From NCBI RefSeq assembly GCF_003991155.1, contig NZ_CP031293.1: 64,000 bases of DNA. One strand, 5' to 3'. Made by a program: the position numbers and the translations under genes. The DNA is from Escherichia coli (lineage in GTDB: Bacteria > Pseudomonadota > Gammaproteobacteria > Enterobacterales > Enterobacteriaceae). The notes under the pieces are model-generated. The model was not told the DNA's origin. It was given only the letters and a program-made list of their open reading frames with translations, and made no database searches. Shown in pieces: positions 51,720 through 61,517 of this stretch; position 1 is the stretch's first letter; each line of letters begins with the position of its first letter.

Positions 51720-53015
<1,296 letters not shown>

Positions 53016-53018
53016 AAC

Positions 53019-53050
53019 TGTCAGCCGGGTCATTATCGCCTGGCTGATTT
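53019..53050 (+). terminator. terminator after yeaH (CAGCCGG...CCTGGCTG hairpin plus ATTTTT)
   Basis: Hairpin plus T-run. Confidence 0.6.
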
Positions 53051-53161
53051 TTAGCTCACTGTAAATTATCTCATTTATTACATACATTAGCTTACAATCG
53101 CTTTAAATATGACAGCATAACCTTTACACAATTTAGTTCCAGAAAACAATCATTCGGAAAA

Positions 53162-54637
53162 ATGATTCGGTCAACACGTATTTCCCTGGGGTTATTCTTT
53201 AATTATTTTTTATCGTCAACGAAAATTGATCCTGGTCAAAACTATATATCTCTGCCATCAATAAAATCCAGCACTCACATTGCTCTCCTTTTTATGGCTT
53301 CTATGGGTACACAAAAATTAAAAGCTCAAGGCTTTTTAGTTTTCAGCTTATTGCTGACGTTAATTTTATTTTGCATTACTACTTTATATAACGAAAACAC
53401 GAATGTAAAACTCATCCCACAGATGAATTACCTGATGGTTGTTGTGGCTTTGTTTTTCCTTAACGCCGTCATTTTTCTTTTCATGTTAATGAAGTATTTC
53501 ACTAACAAACAAATTTTACCAACACTCATTTTAAGCCTTGCATTTTTAAGTGGCCTTATCTATTTAGTTGAAACCATTGTAATTATCCATAAACCAATCA
53601 ACGGCAGTACACTGATCCAGACAAAGTCGAATGATGTTTCTATTTTCTATATTTTCCGCCAACTCAGTTTCATTTGTTTAACCTCGCTGGCGCTCTTTTG
53701 TTATGGGAAAGACAACATCCTTGACAACAATAAGAAAAAAACTGGCATTCTGTTGCTGGCGCTGATTCCTTTTTTAGTTTTTCCCCTTCTGGCACACAAT
53801 CTGAGTAGTTATAACGCTGACTATTCTTTGTATGTCGTCGATTACTGTCCGGACAACCATACTGCGACCTGGGGAATCAACTATACAAAAATATTGGTTT
53901 GTTTGTGGGCATTTTTACTGTTCTTTATTATCATGCGTACACGATTAGCCAGCGAACTATGGCCGTTAATAGCATTATTATGTCTGGCATCGCTATGCTG
54001 CAACTTACTTCTACTGACTCTGGATGAGTATAATTACACCATCTGGTATATCAGTCGCGGGATTGAAGTTTCCAGTAAACTGTTTGTTGTGTCTTTTCTG
54101 ATTTATAACATTTTTCAGGAACTGCAACTCTCCAGCAAACTGGCAGTTCATGATGTGCTGACCAATATTTATAATCGGCGCTACTTTTTCAACAGCGTAG
54201 AGTCATTATTGTCGCGACCTGTTGTTAAGGACTTTTGTGTCATGCTGGTTGATATTAATCAGTTCAAACGCATCAATGCCCAATGGGGACATCGTGTGGG
54301 TGATAAAGTGCTGGTATCAATTGTCGATATTATCCAGCAAAGCATCCGCCCCGATGATATTTTAGCGCGACTGGAGGGTGAGGTGTTTGGCTTGCTATTT
54401 ACCGAACTCAATAGTGCCCAGGCAAAAATCATTGCGGAACGTATGCGTAAAAATGTCGAACTCCTGACCGGCTTTAGTAACAGATATGATGTTCCTGAAC
54501 AAATGACCATCAGTATTGGCACGGTTTTTTCAACGGGTGACACGCATAATATCTCGCTTGTCATGACGGAAGCAGATAAAGCCTTACGCGAAGCGAAAAG
54601 CGAGGGGGGCAACAAAGTGATTATTCATCATATTTAA
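53162..54637 (+). CDS. yeaI: membrane-anchored GGDEF-domain protein with degenerate active-site motif
   Basis: 491-aa ORF; N-terminal multi-TM region; GGDEF domain with RLEGEVF in place of RxGGDEF. Confidence 0.85.
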   Translation: MIRSTRISLGLFFNYFLSSTKIDPGQNYISLPSIKSSTHIALLFMASMGTQKLKAQGFLVFSLLLTLILFCITTLYNENTNVKLIPQMNYLMVVVALFFLNAVIFLFMLMKYFTNKQILPTLILSLAFLSGLIYLVETIVIIHKPINGSTLIQTKSNDVSIFYIFRQLSFICLTSLALFCYGKDNILDNNKKKTGILLLALIPFLVFPLLAHNLSSYNADYSLYVVDYCPDNHTATWGINYTKILVCLWAFLLFFIIMRTRLASELWPLIALLCLASLCCNLLLLTLDEYNYTIWYISRGIEVSSKLFVVSFLIYNIFQELQLSSKLAVHDVLTNIYNRRYFFNSVESLLSRPVVKDFCVMLVDINQFKRINAQWGHRVGDKVLVSIVDIIQQSIRPDDILARLEGEVFGLLFTELNSAQAKIIAERMRKNVELLTGFSNRYDVPEQMTISIGTVFSTGDTHNISLVMTEADKALREAKSEGGNKVIIHHI

Positions 54638-54817
54638 GTGCAAAAATATTCAGAGCCATGCTTTTTGCGTGGCTTTTGCATACAATTTATTACTATTACC
54701 CCTAAATTTCCCCTCCCCAGCGGCGCAGAGATGAGTATAATTAGCGCCCCTGTGCCAGGCCGCAATCGAACTTTATCTGGTTTTCTCGTTTCACTAACCG
54801 AAGGAGTGCCATTTATC

Positions 54818-56308
54818 ATGAAATTGCACCATAGAATGCTCCGGCATTTTATCGCCGCAAGTGTCATTGTGCTGACATCTTCCTTCCTTATTTTTGAACT
54901 TGTCGCCAGTGACAGAGCAATGAGTGCCTATCTGCGCTATATCGTGCAGAGAGCAGACTCCTCCTTTCTTTATGATAAGTATCAGAATCAGAGTATTGCC
55001 GCGCATGTGATGCGCGCTCTCGCTGCTGAGCAGTCGGAAGTGTCGCCAGAACAGCGGCGAGCCATCTGCGAGGCTTTTGAGTCTGCCAATAATACCCATG
55101 GCTTAAACCTGACTGCCCATAAATACCCTGGCTTACGCGGCACACTACAAACCGCATCCACTGACTGCGACACAATTGTGGAAGCTGCTGCACTATTACC
55201 CGCTTTTGATCAGGCAGTGGAAGGCAACCGCCACCAGGATGATTACGGTTCAGGTCTTGGGATGGCCGAAGAGAAATTTCACTATTATCTCGATCTCAAT
55301 GACCGCTATGTCTATTTTTATGAGCCGGTTAATGTTGAGTACTTTGCGATGAATAACTGGTCCTTCCTGCAGTCAGGAAGTATTGGCATCGATCGCAAAG
55401 ATATTGAAAAGGTATTTACCGGGCGTACCGTATTATCGAGCATTTACCAGGATCAGCGTACTAAACAGAACGTGATGAGTTTGCTGACGCCGGTATATGT
55501 CGCAGGGCAGCTAAAAGGGATTGTGCTGCTGGATATTAACAAAAACAATCTGCGGAATATCTTTTACACTCATGACCGCCCTCTCCTCTGGCGTTTTCTC
55601 AATGTCACGCTAACTGATACAGATTCGGGGCGCGACATTATCATCAACCAGAGCGAAGATAATCTGTTCCAGTATGTCAGTTACGTCCATGACTTACCGG
55701 GCGGCATTCGTGTCTCGTTATCCATTGATATTCTTTACTTTATCACGTCTTCGTGGAAAAGCGTTCTGTTCTGGATTTTGACGGCGTTAATTTTGCTGAA
55801 TATGGTGCGGATGCACTTCCGTTTATACCAAAATGTGTCGCGAGAAAATATTAGTGATGCGATGACTGGACTGTATAATCGCAAAATTTTAACCCCTGAA
55901 CTGGAGCAGCGGTTGCAGAAACTGGTGCAATCCGGTTCTTCGGTGATGTTTATTGCAATTGACATGGACAAGTTAAAGCAAATAAATGACACCCTTGGTC
56001 ATCAGGAGGGGGATTTAGCGATTACGTTATTAGCTCAGGCGATTAAACAATCGATTCGTAAAAGTGATTATGCCATCCGACTCGGTGGCGATGAATTCTG
56101 CATCATTCTTGTCGATTCGACGCCGCAAATTGCAGCACAACTGCCTGAACGTATCGAAAAACGTCTACAACATATCGCGCCGCAGAAAGAGATCGGCTTC
56201 TCTTCCGGTATTTACGCGATGAAAGAAAACGATACGTTACATGATGCGTATAAAGCTTCCGATGAGCGTTTATATGTCAATAAGCAGAACAAAAACAGCC
56301 GTTCATGA
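54818..56308 (+). CDS. yeaJ: diguanylate cyclase (periplasmic sensor domain plus GGDEF)
   Basis: Start at MKLHHRMLRHFIAASVIVL; canonical RLGGDEF; 496 aa. Confidence 0.85.
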   Translation: MKLHHRMLRHFIAASVIVLTSSFLIFELVASDRAMSAYLRYIVQRADSSFLYDKYQNQSIAAHVMRALAAEQSEVSPEQRRAICEAFESANNTHGLNLTAHKYPGLRGTLQTASTDCDTIVEAAALLPAFDQAVEGNRHQDDYGSGLGMAEEKFHYYLDLNDRYVYFYEPVNVEYFAMNNWSFLQSGSIGIDRKDIEKVFTGRTVLSSIYQDQRTKQNVMSLLTPVYVAGQLKGIVLLDINKNNLRNIFYTHDRPLLWRFLNVTLTDTDSGRDIIINQSEDNLFQYVSYVHDLPGGIRVSLSIDILYFITSSWKSVLFWILTALILLNMVRMHFRLYQNVSRENISDAMTGLYNRKILTPELEQRLQKLVQSGSSVMFIAIDMDKLKQINDTLGHQEGDLAITLLAQAIKQSIRKSDYAIRLGGDEFCIILVDSTPQIAAQLPERIEKRLQHIAPQKEIGFSSGIYAMKENDTLHDAYKASDERLYVNKQNKNSRS

Positions 56309-56350
56309 TAACCTTCTGTGGTTGTTTGCTTGTAATCTCAGGAGCATGAA

Positions 56351-56854
56351 ATGACTGAAATGGCTAAAGGAAGCGTGACGCATCAGCGGTTAATCGCTTT
56401 ATTATCGCAAGAAGGTGCTGACTTCCGCGTCGTTACCCATGAAGCGGTAGGTAAATGTGAAGCGGTGTCAGAAATTCGTGGCACCGCTTTAGGCCAGGGG
56501 GCTAAGGCACTGGTATGTAAAGTCAAAGGCAATGGCGTAAATCAACATGTTCTGGCGATCCTCGCTGCCGATCAACAGGCCGATCTGAGCCAACTCGCCA
56601 GCCATATAGGCGGATTACGCGCTTCGTTGGCCAGTCCGGCGGAAGTCGATGAACTCACAGGCTGTGTCTTCGGCGCGATCCCCCCTTTCAGCTTCCATCC
56701 AAAACTCAAACTGGTTGCCGACCCCCTACTCTTCGAACGATTTGATGAAATCGCCTTCAATGCAGGCATGCTGGATAAATCCGTTATTTTGAAAACCGCG
56801 GATTATTTGCGCATTGCGCAACCAGAACTGGTCAATTTCCGCCGCACTGCGTAA
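56351..56854 (+). CDS. yeaK: YbaK/ProX-type aminoacyl-tRNA deacylase-domain protein
   Basis: 167-aa ORF. Confidence 0.8.
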   Translation: MTEMAKGSVTHQRLIALLSQEGADFRVVTHEAVGKCEAVSEIRGTALGQGAKALVCKVKGNGVNQHVLAILAADQQADLSQLASHIGGLRASLASPAEVDELTGCVFGAIPPFSFHPKLKLVADPLLFERFDEIAFNAGMLDKSVILKTADYLRIAQPELVNFRRTA

Positions 56855-56959
56855 CTAGCCTGTCCGTTCGATAAGAAGAACGGACAAAACCAGCACAACA
56901 GCAATGGCAAAAAACGATGACGTGATAATCAGTGTCTCGACGAACATTTGATCGTTCAT
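56855..56959 (-). CDS. yoaI: small hydrophobic protein (34 aa) [34 protein letters not shown]
   Basis: Not in the ORF track (under 60 aa); single predicted TM helix; matches the small protein I remember as yoaI. Confidence 0.6.
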
Positions 56960-57128
56960 AGTATGCCCCCGGGAGATAGCTGTTTTCACGTTATTGTTAG
57001 CGTGCGCAAATGGCAGTTTGATGACAGTTCGCCTGATTTTTTATGCAAAAAACGTAAAGATTTTCTACTTCCTTCCTGCAGCAAGCGTAAAGTAAGCAGG
57101 CTTATTATTTTTTGGCAAGGAAACCACG

Positions 57129-57575
57129 ATGTTTGATGTCACTTTGCTGATCCTGCTCGGGTTAGCTGCGCTGGGCTTTATCAGTCATAACACCACTGTC
57201 GCCGTTTCAATTCTGGTGTTGATTATTGTCCGCGTCACACCGTTAAGCACCTTTTTTCCGTGGATTGAAAAACAGGGGCTAAGTATCGGGATAATCATTC
57301 TGACGATTGGTGTTATGGCCCCCATCGCCAGCGGGACGCTACCGCCCTCAACCCTGATTCACTCGTTTCTGAACTGGAAATCGCTGGTGGCAATTGCAGT
57401 CGGCGTTATTGTCTCCTGGCTGGGAGGGCGCGGCGTGACGTTAATGGGCAGCCAGCCGCAACTGGTCGCCGGGTTGCTGGTGGGCACTGTTTTAGGCGTG
57501 GCGCTGTTTCGCGGCGTACCGGTTGGCCCGCTTATTGCCGCGGGTCTGGTTTCGCTGATTGTGGGGAAACAGTAG
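57129..57575 (+). CDS. yeaL: UPF0756/DUF441 inner membrane protein
   Basis: 148-aa hydrophobic ORF. Confidence 0.8.
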
Positions 57576-58353
57576 TTAATCCCGCAATATATCGGCCTGG
57601 CGTTTGCCCCAGGCCTTTCTTAAACATAGTAATAAAGGCCGTTGTTGAATCATACCCCAGCGTATGAGCAACTTTCTGTACAGTATCGCCTTTCACTAAT
57701 CCCTGAAGCGCCATAATCAGCTGTAACTGCTGACGCCACTGGCGAAAACTCAAGCCCGTCTCTTTCACTATCAGCCGGGCAAGATTGCGTTCACTCATCG
57801 CAAAAAAGCCAGCCCATTGCCCCAATGAGCCCCACTCGACGGGCTCTTTCGCCATCATCTCCACCATCGCGCGGATTTTAGGATGAGAAGAAACGGGTAG
57901 GTGCAGCTGTTGTTGTGGCTGCTGAGGGAGTTCATCAAACAGGACCTGAATTAATCTGCGGGTCATCGGCTCAGCACGCTGAGTCGTCGTCCTGTTTGCC
58001 AGGGTTAAAATTAATTCCCGGCATAAGGGCGATATTTTCAATGTGCAACAGGTTGTCGGCATTGTCACTGCGCTGGGTTCGATAAACAGAAAACAGAGTT
58101 CAGCGTTAGCTGTCACTTGATTGCTATGTTCCACCCCTCCCGGTATCCAAACCGCATATTGTGGCGGCACCATCCACAAAGCATTTTCCACCGTACAGGT
58201 AATTGCACCATGTAGCGCCAGTATCAGCTGTCCTTTGCGGTGCTGATGTACAGGACTGGTTAACTCATCCGTTCCGGCGTGAATACAAAATGCGACCGCG
58301 GCTTCATGGTGTCGGTCGGGTTCATAGCCATTGAGATTCAACCTGTGCATCAT
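57532..58353 (-). CDS. yeaM: AraC-family transcriptional regulator (cupin plus HTH)
   Basis: 273-aa ORF; 3' end overlaps yeaL 3' end. Confidence 0.8.
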
Positions 58354-58449
58354 TTTGTCCGAATTTAGCGATAATTTGTCATTTTAGCTTGATTCAACAT
58401 AACAATAAAAACGGTAAGGTACAGCCTCGTTTGTAACAATGAGAAGCAT

Positions 58450-59631
58450 ATGACCTGTTCAACTTCATTAAGCGGCAAAAACAGGATTGTCCTTATCGCT
58501 GGTATTCTGATGATTGCCACAACATTACGCGTCACCTTTACCGGCGCAGCACCGTTACTGGATACGATTCGTTCCGCTTACTCGCTGACGACGGCGCAAA
58601 CCGGCTTATTGACCACCCTGCCATTATTAGCCTTTGCGCTAATCTCACCGCTGGCCGCCCCGGTGGCGCGACGTTTTGGTATGGAACGTAGCCTGTTTGC
58701 CGCGTTACTTTTGATCTGTGCAGGTATCGCAATTCGCTCTCTCCCTTCGCCTTACTTATTATTTGGCGGTACAGCGGTCATTGGCGGTGGGATTGCATTA
58801 GGTAATGTCTTACTGCCAGGATTAATTAAACGCGATTTCCCTCATTCCGTCGCCAGACTTACCGGCGCATATTCCCTGACAATGGGAGCTGCAGCGGCAC
58901 TGGGATCGGCGATGGTAGTGCCGCTGGCTTTGAACGGTTTTGGCTGGCAAGGCGCGTTGCTCATGCTGATGTCTTTTCCTCTGCTGGCTCTTTTTTTATG
59001 GCTGCCACAGTGGCGAAGTCAACAACATGCAAATTTGAGTACCTCACGCGCCTTACATACTCGGGGTATCTGGCGTTCGCCGCTTGCCTGGCAGGTAACA
59101 TTGTTTCTTGGGATCAACTCACTCGTCTATTACGTGATTATTGGCTGGCTTCCGGCGATCCTCATCAGTCACGGCTATAGCGAAGCACAGGCGGGTTCAC
59201 TGCATGGTTTGCTGCAACTAGCCACAGCAGCTCCCGGTTTGCTGATCCCACTTTTCTTACATCATGTGAAAGATCAGCGTGGTATTGCAGCGTTCGTTGC
59301 CTTGATGTGCGCAGTGGGCGCGGTTGGGCTCTGCTTTATGCCAGCGCACGCGATCACCTGGACTCTGCTTTTCGGTTTTGGTTCCGGCGCAACAATGATA
59401 CTGGGGTTGACGTTCATTGGTCTTCGGGCAAGTTCTGCGCATCAGGCGGCGGCACTCTCGGGGATGGCACAATCCGTCGGGTATTTGCTGGCAGCCTGTG
59501 GGCCGCCGCTGATGGGTAAAATACACGATGCTAACGGTGACTGGTCCATACCACTGATGGGTGTTGCCATACTTTCACTACTGATGGCGATTTTCGGACT
59601 TTGCGCCGGGAGAGACAAAGAAATTCGCTAA
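58450..59631 (+). CDS. yeaN: MFS transporter (cyanate-transporter-like family)
   Basis: 393-aa polytopic ORF. Confidence 0.8.
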   Translation: MTCSTSLSGKNRIVLIAGILMIATTLRVTFTGAAPLLDTIRSAYSLTTAQTGLLTTLPLLAFALISPLAAPVARRFGMERSLFAALLLICAGIAIRSLPSPYLLFGGTAVIGGGIALGNVLLPGLIKRDFPHSVARLTGAYSLTMGAAAALGSAMVVPLALNGFGWQGALLMLMSFPLLALFLWLPQWRSQQHANLSTSRALHTRGIWRSPLAWQVTLFLGINSLVYYVIIGWLPAILISHGYSEAQAGSLHGLLQLATAAPGLLIPLFLHHVKDQRGIAAFVALMCAVGAVGLCFMPAHAITWTLLFGFGSGATMILGLTFIGLRASSAHQAAALSGMAQSVGYLLAACGPPLMGKIHDANGDWSIPLMGVAILSLLMAIFGLCAGRDKEIR

Positions 59632-59685
59632 TATCCGGTGCTATAGTGACGTGACAAATCATGCGTGAAAGGGAGAACAAACACG

Positions 59686-60033
59686 ATGAATATTCAGTGC
59701 AAACGCGTTTATGATCCGGCTGAACAGAGCGATGGTTATCGCGTACTGGTCGACCGCCTCTGGCCGCGCGGTATCAAAAAAACCGATTTAGCCCTTGATG
59801 AGTGGGATAAAGAAATCACGCCGTCAACGGAACTGCGCAAAGCCTTTCACGGCGAAGTCGTCGATTTTGCAACCTTTCGCGAGCAATATCTTGCAGAACT
59901 GGCGCAACACGAGCAAGAAGGAAAGCGGCTGGCGAACATCGCCAAAAAACAGCCGCTGACCCTGCTCTACTCAGCAAAAAACACCACGCAGAACCATGCG
60001 CTGGTACTGGCAGACTGGCTACGTAGCTTGTGA
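59686..60033 (+). CDS. yeaO: DUF488 protein
   Basis: Start at MNIQCKRVYD, 115 aa. Confidence 0.75.
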   Translation: MNIQCKRVYDPAEQSDGYRVLVDRLWPRGIKKTDLALDEWDKEITPSTELRKAFHGEVVDFATFREQYLAELAQHEQEGKRLANIAKKQPLTLLYSAKNTTQNHALVLADWLRSL

Positions 60034-60054
60034 TTTTAGTACGCCATCCGGCGG

Positions 60055-60309
60055 TTATTTTTCACCAGCCGGATGGTCCCGTCGCCACAATGCCCATTCA
60101 TCAATCGTTTCACCGCCCGGTAATTTGCAATTGTTGCTGACCCCTTGCGCTGTCTGCACAGGAATGAGCGTCCCGCCCTTCTGCTGGCAATAGACCGACG
60201 CCGGATTTGCCATACCAATCTGTGGCGGTTTAGGTGCTTCTGGCTGAGAAGGGGTTGAACAACCAGCCAGGACCAGCAAGCAAGGCAGAACAAAACTGAT
60301 AATTTTCAT
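60055..60309 (-). CDS. yoaF: DUF333 lipoprotein
   Basis: 84-aa ORF with lipobox LAGC. Confidence 0.75.
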   Translation of the reverse strand: MKIISFVLPCLLVLAGCSTPSQPEAPKPPQIGMANPASVYCQQKGGTLIPVQTAQGVSNNCKLPGGETIDEWALWRRDHPAGEK

Positions 60310-60491
60310 TTATTGATCTCACATATTTATCCAGACTTAGAGTATCGCGGTATCGTTTTGTTTTGCAGCACTATTTTTATTACATTCACTCAAAACATAT
60401 TACGCCTTGTTTCATCTTTGTTGATGATGTTTTATCATGCCTGCAAAGATTAAATAATCAGCATTTACCCGCCGTATCCTGGAGTTGTTTC

Positions 60492-61517
60492 GTGTCAGAT
60501 CAGATTATCGCCCGCGTCTCGCAATCCCTTGCCAAAGAACAGTCACTGGAAAGTCTGGTTCGACAGCTTCTGGAGATGCTGGAAATGGTCACTGATATGG
60601 AATCAACCTACCTGACCAAAGTGGATGTCGAAGCGCGCCTGCAGCATATAATGTTTGCCCGTAACAGCCAGAAAATGCACATCCCGGAGAATTTTACCGT
60701 CTCGTGGGATTACTCGTTATGCAAACGCGCCATTGATGAAAACTGCTTTTTCAGCGATGAAGTCCCCGACCGTTGGGGCGACTGTATTGCGGCACGCAAT
60801 CTTGGCATCACCACATTTCTGAGCACGCCAATTCACTTACCGGATGGATCATTCTATGGCACGCTTTGCGCCGCCAGCAGTGAGAAGCGCCAGTGGAGTG
60901 AACGCGCGGAACAGGTTTTGCAGTTATTCGCCGGACTGATTGCACAATATATTCAAAAAGAGGCACTGGTTGAACAGCTGCGCGAAGCTAATGCTGCGCT
61001 GATTGCGCAATCGTATACCGACTCGTTAACCGGGCTACCGAATCGGCGGGCGATTTTTGAAAATCTGACGACGCTGTTTTCTCTCGCCCGGCATCTTAAC
61101 CATAAGATAATGATCGCGTTTATCGACCTGGATAACTTCAAATTAATCAACGATCGTTTTGGTCATAATAGTGGCGATCTGTTTCTCATTCAGGTTGGCG
61201 AGCGCCTTAATACGCTCCAGCAAAATGGCGAAGTTATTGGTCGTCTCGGCGGTGATGAGTTTTTGGTTGTTTCACTGAACAACGAGAATGCGGATATTTC
61301 GTCGCTGCGAGAACGTATTCAACAACAAATACGCGGAGAATATCACTTAGCTGATGTTGATTTGTATTATCCTGGTGCCAGTCTTGGCATAGTAGAAGTC
61401 GATCCTGAAACGACCGATGCAGACAGTGCCCTGCATGCTGCCGATATCGCGATGTATCAGGAGAAAAAACACAAACAGAAAACACCTTTTGTCGCGCATC
61501 CAGCGCTACATTCCTGA
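60492..61517 (+). CDS. yeaP: diguanylate cyclase (GAF-like N-terminal domain plus GGDEF)
   Basis: GTG start (MSDQIIARVSQ...), canonical RLGGDEF, 341 aa. Confidence 0.85.
   Translation: MSDQIIARVSQSLAKEQSLESLVRQLLEMLEMVTDMESTYLTKVDVEARLQHIMFARNSQKMHIPENFTVSWDYSLCKRAIDENCFFSDEVPDRWGDCIAARNLGITTFLSTPIHLPDGSFYGTLCAASSEKRQWSERAEQVLQLFAGLIAQYIQKEALVEQLREANAALIAQSYTDSLTGLPNRRAIFENLTTLFSLARHLNHKIMIAFIDLDNFKLINDRFGHNSGDLFLIQVGERLNTLQQNGEVIGRLGGDEFLVVSLNNENADISSLRERIQQQIRGEYHLADVDLYYPGASLGIVEVDPETTDADSALHAADIAMYQEKKHKQKTPFVAHPALHS

Follow-up and report, generated by a model that had tools for sequence, protein, structure and literature searches.

The genes cdgI (yeaI), dgcJ (yeaJ) and dgcP (yeaP) of Escherichia coli, which code for proteins with a GGDEF domain, lie at positions 53162-61517 of a 64,000-nt stretch of DNA (hereafter, the window; coordinates refer to the window and features are on its + strand unless indicated). 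We conclude that the three genes very probably differ in descent and were added one at a time to a variable region that follows the yeaG-yeaH operon and is close to the replication terminus. The preliminary description of the window, which was made from the sequence, had left two origins open, local duplication of one gene or independent acquisitions. The levels of identity, the mutual ranking of the three proteins and their placement in three separate clades speak against the former, whereas staggered phyletic patterns at a syntenic position, together with differing GC contents, bear out the latter.

Mutual relatedness of the three GGDEF proteins

The presence of three GGDEF genes within about 8 kb, as first described, is confirmed by the listing of open reading frames (ORFs), by Pfam and by the RefSeq annotation of identical E. 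coli chromosomes, which concur, and by a six-frame scan with a profile derived from the E. coli repertoire, which detected exactly three GGDEF domains in the 64-kb window. As annotated, cdgI (53162..54637) codes for a protein of 491 residues, dgcJ (54818..56308) for one of 496 and dgcP (60492..61517) for one of 341. Several E. coli chromosomes, K-12 not among them, match this stretch at 100% identity, and of 5426 complete E. coli genomes, 5399 contain at least 80% of it. In K-12, the corresponding genes (cdgI, b1785; dgcJ, b1786; dgcP, b1794) have the same order, orientation and domains, and the proteins are 98-100% identical (98% for CdgI), such that only strain-level substitutions distinguish the two trios. 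The N-terminal input domains had been labelled multi-transmembrane (TM), periplasmic sensor and GAF-like; these labels were right, as they correspond to MASE4, GAPES1 and GAF, respectively.

In pairwise BLASTP, CdgI, DgcJ and DgcP align with one another in the GGDEF domain only, at 29-31% identity, which is the background level between any two GGDEF domains of E. coli. When the GGDEF proteins of K-12 were compared all against all by BLAST, members of the trio took places 7 to 12 in one another's lists of matches. The top K-12 match of CdgI is DgcT (37% identity over 449 residues, full length; E value 5e-99), with DgcJ in 8th and DgcP in 12th place, while the best matches of DgcJ are DosC and DgcQ and those of DgcP are PdeR, DgcC and DgcE. 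In a neighbor-joining tree of 34 GGDEF domains (200 bootstraps; about 156 columns), CdgI groups with DgcT (99%), DgcJ falls in a clade of its orthologues (100%), as does DgcP (100%), and the three groups are apart from one another. Tandem duplicates would be neighbors that are also closest relatives within the genome; the three proteins are not.

The relationship between CdgI and DgcT deserves comment. DgcT (YcdT) and DgcX are MASE4-GGDEF cyclases with which CdgI is known to share the N-terminal domain (PMC5635695). CdgI is collinear with DgcT along its entire length, and the two genes have a similarly low GC content; DgcT, however, has an active GGEEF site where CdgI has EGEVF, and dgcT is located 0.78 Mb away from the trio, next to pgaABCD. 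Since proteins in the databases, at 41-46% identity, are nearer to CdgI than DgcT is, dgcT is a member of the same family but not the direct parent of cdgI.

Phyletic distribution and composition

We examined 80 loci of species-representative Enterobacteriaceae, anchored on yeaH and with 10-kb flanks, onto which the E. coli genes were mapped. The three genes differ in their distribution. All five Escherichia loci have cdgI, and the remaining 75 lack it. dgcJ occurs at 23 of the 80 loci, with 95-98% identity in Escherichia, 63-67% in Citrobacter and about 45% in Kluyvera and the Klebsiella oxytoca group, and was also found in Pseudocitrobacter and in one Cedecea. dgcP follows yoaF in 37 of the loci, also in Enterobacter, Leclercia, Pseudescherichia and Trabulsiella (55-73% identity). 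According to a published list of GGDEF proteins, Salmonella Typhimurium has, of the trio, YeaJ (STM1283) alone (PMC3229569). GC content rises from cdgI (39.2%; dgcT, 38.6%) through dgcJ (45.5%) to dgcP (48.4%), the window as a whole having 49.7%; these differences fit a staggered history of the trio. The preliminary description had also anticipated that domains without particular relatedness, in a synteny both ancient and lineage-wide, would reduce the cluster to a conserved layout. This is largely what we see: the domains show no particular relatedness, and the dgcJ/dgcP layout is common to Escherichia, Citrobacter, Kluyvera and the K. oxytoca group.

A protein search extended the range of cdgI. 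Relatives of CdgI at 57-64% identity are encoded by Citrobacter sp. Awk 4, Citrobacter sp. NCU1 and other assemblies, and on their contigs the order yeaH - MASE4-GGDEF - dgcJ - yeaK ... dgcP is that of E. coli. The occurrence of a syntenic trio in these Citrobacter-like contigs implies that the layout predates Escherichia, though it is rare outside this genus. The syntenic orthologues of Citrobacter sp. Awk 4 and of a related assembly (L097:10001-11338 and L099:10001-11338; 57-62% identity) have GGEEF together with IND; at two other loci, the syntenic CdgI reads EGEVF (L100; 76% identity to E. coli CdgI) or EGKRF (L101; 64%). The RxxD motif is kept in all of the Citrobacter-type versions and in those of L100 and L101. 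Because both the DgcT outgroup and the Citrobacter orthologues carry GGEEF, these motifs are most simply read as an active site that would be ancestral in CdgI and would have been lost in the lineage that includes Escherichia.

No trace of the event that placed cdgI next to yeaH was apparent: a repeat search of 52900-54900 returned short repeats at chance level only, the ORF listing and the annotation show no insertion sequence, tRNA gene or integrase gene next to cdgI, and a tblastn search with the Citrobacter-type protein found no cdgI remnants in Citrobacter lacking the gene. In some of these cdgI-less Citrobacter, yeaH and dgcJ are separated by an additional 1-2 kb.

CdgI as a non-enzymatic c-di-GMP-binding protein

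The three proteins had been described as enzymes of cyclic di-GMP (c-di-GMP) metabolism. The motifs of DgcJ and DgcP agree with this description, but those of CdgI (EGEVF and NA) do not. The MASE4 domain of CdgI (PF17158; an integral-membrane sensor domain) spans residues 88-319 (53423..54118; E value 1.7e-48; 165.5 bits against a gathering cut-off of 28.4) and the GGDEF domain (PF00990) residues 328-485 (54143..54616; 152.8 bits, cut-off 23.8). Motif reading places a degenerate active site (A-site), EGEVF, at residue 405 (54374-54388) and, five residues upstream, an intact RxxD inhibitory site (I-site), RPDD (54347-54358), in the arrangement RPDD-ILARL-EGEVF. In addition, the ND motif is changed to NA ('KRINAQWGH'), the metal/substrate Asp being replaced by Ala, so that CdgI does not have the combination of GG(D/E)EF and K..ND looked for in active cyclases. 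Because of the EGEVF A-site and the change of ND to NA, CdgI is a protein of GGDEF fold but not an enzyme, in line with the literature. The degenerate A-site and the intact I-site have been reported before, and it is from published work that binding of c-di-GMP by purified CdgI is known (PMC5635695; motif table in PMC3484386). CdgI was also found to be undetectable under standard conditions, toxic on overproduction and repressed by CsrA (PMC5635695). CdgI is a membrane-anchored c-di-GMP binder which may modulate other GGDEF proteins by heteromeric contacts.

In comparisons with other Escherichia, the ratio of non-synonymous to synonymous substitution rates (dN/dS) is 0.09-0.115 for cdgI, 0.02-0.04 for dgcJ and 0.05-0.07 for dgcP; cdgI evolves 2-4 times faster than its neighbors, yet purifying selection persists. 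The possibility that cdgI is a decaying pseudogene was considered and is ruled out by a dN/dS of about 0.1 and by intact reading frames in four Escherichia species.

The intact form of CdgI makes up a cluster of about 10,900 members. Beside it, there are clusters, with hundreds of members, of truncated variants of 281-345 residues (P0013, P0019, P0025, P0022), several of which are without the GGDEF domain; the hundreds of truncated variants indicate that disruption of cdgI is common among natural E. coli. In Shigella flexneri, the gene is missing entirely (PMC11327459).

The annotated start of cdgI is probably 44 codons too far upstream. In other Escherichia, the first 44 codons (53162-53293) do not read as conserved coding sequence: they are broken by 1-nt indels and stop codons in E. 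albertii and in two divergent 'E. coli' species, and the annotated ATG reads TTG in E. whittamii. DgcT and all orthologues of CdgI, those of Citrobacter included, align with it from residue 48, and other Escherichia CdgI clusters are annotated at 447 residues. The lack of conservation of the upstream codons and the alignments from residue 48 together point to Met45 (53294..53296) as the probable true start, with Met48 (53303) as the alternative. The DNA of 53162-53293 is itself fairly conserved (e.g. TTGATCCTGGTCAAAA) and may be a regulatory 5′ region.

DgcJ and DgcP as cyclases

DgcJ consists of a TM segment, a periplasmic GAPES1 sensor domain (PF17155; 54908..55729; E value 9.6e-151, 501 bits), a second TM segment and a GGDEF domain of the active type (137.6 bits, cut-off 23.8). 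The GGDEF motif, at residue 423 (56084-56098), and 'KQINDTLGH' are those expected of an active cyclase, and the I-site, RKSD (56057-56068), precedes GGDEF by five residues (RKSD-YAIRL-GGDEF). Binding of autoinducer-2 (AI-2) and stimulation of cyclase activity have been reported for Salmonella YeaJ and for its homologue in enterohaemorrhagic E. coli (EHEC) O157:H7; Salmonella YeaJ needs Y210 and D239 in order to bind AI-2, and homologues that bind AI-2, the one from EHEC O157:H7 among them, share these two residues (PMC9637222). Both residues are present in DgcJ (Y210, 55445-55447; D239, 55532-55534). As Salmonella YeaJ (STM1283) has the same architecture, and Y210, D239, GGDEF and RxxD are all intact here, DgcJ is best read, by analogy, as an AI-2-stimulated cyclase subject to product feedback. 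The Salmonella locus differs from the window in that, per the published GGDEF list, yeaJ is without cdgI and dgcP as neighbors. In the ORF list, dgcJ begins 60 codons earlier, at a GTG (556 residues; 54638-54817), but the annotated ATG at 54818, which is preceded by AAGGAG, fits the Pfam boundaries and the orthologues better.

DgcP has a cytoplasmic GAF domain (60540-60956; GAF_2, 41.7 bits, cut-off 28.6; GAF, 36.5 bits, cut-off 22.4) followed by an active-type GGDEF domain (61014-61481; 140.6 bits, cut-off 23.8). Its GGDEF motif, at residue 253 (61248-61262), and 'KLINDRFGH' likewise match the motifs of active cyclases; activity of the protein (YeaP) has been reported in E. coli and in Shigella (literature including PMC3484386). 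There is no RxxD I-site: at that position 'QQNGEVIGRLGGDEF' reads NGEV (NGEV-IGRL-GGDEF). DgcP is, then, a cytoplasmic, GAF-regulated cyclase without feedback. It is under vegetative control and expressed relatively strongly in all growth phases (PMC5635695). For dgcP too, the ORF list gives a longer form, from a TTG 43 codons upstream (384 residues; 60363-60491), but the annotated GTG at 60492 is in better agreement with the Pfam boundaries and the orthologues.

Transcription units and neighboring genes

The yeaG-yeaH operon ends in an intrinsic terminator (53020..53048) with an 11-bp stem, of which six pairs are GC, and a T-run after it; every Escherichia and Citrobacter locus aligned has kept the hairpin. 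This strong terminator sets the yeaG-yeaH operon apart from cdgI. The gap of 180 bp between cdgI and dgcJ contains two further elements. A weak hairpin with a T-run (GCCATGC-TTTTT-GCGTGGC-TTTT; 54655..54676), read from the sequence, is a tentative candidate for the cdgI terminator; the terminator scan made no call at this hairpin, which lies just past the cdgI stop codon. The other element is a candidate -10 box of a dgcJ promoter, with a perfect TATAAT, in GATGAGTATAATTA (54730..54743; about 80 nt upstream of dgcJ), and at the same place the Citrobacter sp. Awk 4 locus has GATGAGTATAATTAGCGCC. A scan for sigma-70 promoters gave no signal (11 sites against 14.4 expected).

Between dgcJ and dgcP lie seven genes (56351..60309; annotation and Pfam), yeaK(+), yoaI(-), yeaL(+), nimR(-), nimT(+), yeaO(+) and yoaF(-), three of which are on the opposite strand. 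dgcJ and dgcP do not form an operon, and given the opposing orientations of the genes that separate them, dgcP cannot be co-transcribed with dgcJ. The best explanation is that the three genes are transcribed separately, which for cdgI and dgcJ is probable, in agreement with their published expression differences.

Some of the intervening genes vary themselves. nimR and nimT, which code for a nitroimidazole regulator and exporter, are missing from Escherichia sp. E1V33 (L003) and E. whittamii (L004), in which yeaL is directly followed by yeaO (the missing region is the equivalent of 57532-59631), and nimR alone is missing at L100. A glutamine-amidotransferase-like gene (PF00117; about 235-250 residues) separates nimT from yeaO at 54 of the 80 loci (e.g. 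L097:16421-17128) and is absent from Escherichia, including the window, where the corresponding position is about 59631-59686.

GGDEF genes downstream of yeaH in other genera

Different GGDEF genes occur in the same neighborhood in other genera. In some Enterobacter, Leclercia and Lelliottia, a gene for a CZB-GGDEF protein, 43.5% identical to DgcZ, is found directly after yeaH on the opposite strand, in the slot of E. coli cdgI/dgcJ (L017:1706-2680, L018:11321-12238, L034:5873-6778 and L048:11320-12276; all -). Enterobacter mori has a dCache_1-GGDEF gene beyond yeaQ (L019:18653-20125; -). Kluyvera, Pseudocitrobacter and Pluralibacter carry, near dgcP/yoaF, an extra gene for a GGDEF protein with a periplasmic sensor (L021:19689-21209, L042:19724-21244, L033:20061-21269 and L060:16119-17696; all -). 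The sensor domain of this protein has no match in Pfam; the GGDEF domain branches next to the DgcJ clade as its sister group (87% bootstrap), and the Kluyvera protein is 22% identical to DgcJ over 470 residues. The upstream flank, of about 8 kb, was free of GGDEF genes at all 80 loci. In all, three of 124 accessory families of the region not found in E. coli carry GGDEF, where about 0.6 would be expected (Poisson P of about 0.025, from a rough ORF census and an assumed genome-wide GGDEF frequency of 0.5%). This is a weak hint at a GGDEF hot spot downstream of yeaH.

Density of GGDEF genes

The cluster had been called unusually dense, and this holds statistically, although the test was made post hoc. 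Using the start coordinates of the 19 genes of K-12 that contain a GGDEF domain, and 200,000 random placements on the chromosome, three starts fell within 7.3 kb in 0.7% of the trials under uniform placement; for the 13 genes with GGDEF only, the equivalent figure was 0.2%. However, 12 of the 19 genes (NC_000913.3) are in the 1.0-2.2 Mb segment around the terminus, which makes up 26% of the chromosome (binomial P of about 0.0007, the segment having itself been picked post hoc), and given this distribution the P value for the trio rises to 0.023. The density of the trio is thus real but only mildly unusual. Other close sets of c-di-GMP genes exist in E. coli, such as dosC-dosP, pdeI-dgcI and dgcF/dgcZ, the latter 12 kb apart, mostly within 1.0-2.2 Mb. 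In dosCP, a cyclase and a phosphodiesterase are co-transcribed and serve one function, whereas the trio is made up of GGDEF-only genes in what are probably separate transcription units.

Discussion

The distribution, relationships and motifs of the three proteins suggest the following course of events. dgcP would be the oldest and most widespread resident of the region, and dgcJ an older but patchy and fast-diverging one, next to yeaH. cdgI, with an active GGEEF site on arrival, would have entered the gap that separates yeaH from dgcJ in an ancestor of Escherichia and of a few Citrobacter-like lineages. In Escherichia, CdgI would then have lost catalysis (GGEEF to EGEVF and ND to NA) with retention of RxxD, and may now act as a c-di-GMP-binding regulator rather than as a cyclase. 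From these patterns we infer in which order the genes were acquired and in which direction the active site of CdgI decayed.

Several points weigh against this account. The order of acquisition was deduced from presence and absence, with no reconciliation to a species tree, and an early presence of dgcJ followed by many losses is possible. Salmonella is outside the 80-locus set and enters our analysis by its published gene list only. In the GGDEF tree, the deep nodes are unresolved and only the shallow groupings are reliable. Divergence from E. coli is incongruent between neighboring genes, CdgI being 76% and DgcJ 68% identical at L100, and CdgI 64% and DgcJ 84% at L101; allele exchange or uneven rates could possibly account for this, either of which complicates a single insertion. 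Moreover, cdgI adjoins dgcJ in every lineage that carries it, a constancy that could reflect function beside history, and the density of the trio (P of 0.007, or 0.023 when conditioned on the terminus segment) leaves purely neutral accretion an incomplete explanation.

Local tandem duplication of a single GGDEF gene, with the copies then acquiring other sensor domains and diverging over a long time, would explain why three genes on the same strand are found within 8.4 kb and why cdgI and dgcJ are directly adjacent; a distant relative of DgcJ (22% over 470 residues) a few kb away in other genera shows that duplication may have happened there. For the E. coli trio, however, it is extremely improbable, as the 29-31% identity of the GGDEF domains is the E. 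coli background, each protein has closer relatives elsewhere (for CdgI, DgcT over the full length), the three fall in separate and well-supported clades, and their phyletic distributions and GC contents differ. A related question is whether the genes were kept together by selection for a joint function, CdgI for example modulating DgcJ, and perhaps DgcP, by GGDEF-GGDEF contacts. The above-random density and the invariable position of cdgI beside dgcJ would both be expected in this case; in two-hybrid assays the GGDEF domain of CdgI contacts several GGDEF domains strongly, and the protein binds c-di-GMP (PMC5635695), and a spontaneous cdgI-dgcJ' deletion with a mild phenotype has been described (PMC8117528). 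We nevertheless regard selection for joint function as very unlikely to be the reason for the clustering. The genes are probably in separate transcription units, and their published regulation differs (CdgI silent and CsrA-repressed, DgcP vegetative and strong, DgcJ separate), many lineages keep only one or two of them (J in Salmonella, P in Enterobacter, J and P in most Citrobacter), and the available part of the published account of CdgI contacts names neither DgcJ nor DgcP.

The stretch downstream of yeaGH could also be a landing site specific for GGDEF genes across the Enterobacteriaceae, over and above its general plasticity. At least six architectures are represented within 10 kb (MASE4, GAPES1, GAF, CZB, dCache and the unclassified periplasmic sensor), the upstream flank is free of GGDEF genes in 80/80 loci, and three of 124 accessory families have a GGDEF domain where about 0.6 would be expected. 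But the enrichment is modest, post hoc and derived from a rough census with an assumed background rate; 121 of the 124 families are non-GGDEF, only a single flank served as control, and GGDEF genes are typical accessory genes, whose over-representation would be expected in any variable region. A GGDEF-specific site is for these reasons unlikely. It is similarly doubtful that the E. coli trio is a snapshot of a long-lived 'c-di-GMP islet' selected for position, in which CdgI has turned into a modulator of its neighbors. Stepwise accumulation of genes of different descent in a variable region remains the explanation that we favor.

The locus is real, somewhat dense and well described: earlier publications cover the genes and their domains as well as the degenerate site of CdgI and AI-2 sensing by YeaJ, and the importance of the locus goes little beyond bookkeeping. 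The question of duplication is settled, in that the cluster is not the product of one. The analysis makes small additions, namely syntenic CdgI orthologues with GGEEF, a probably wrong start for cdgI, and genus-specific GGDEF genes downstream of yeaH. The CdgI orthologues with GGEEF, EGKRF and EGEVF would form a natural series leading from a cyclase to a c-di-GMP receptor.

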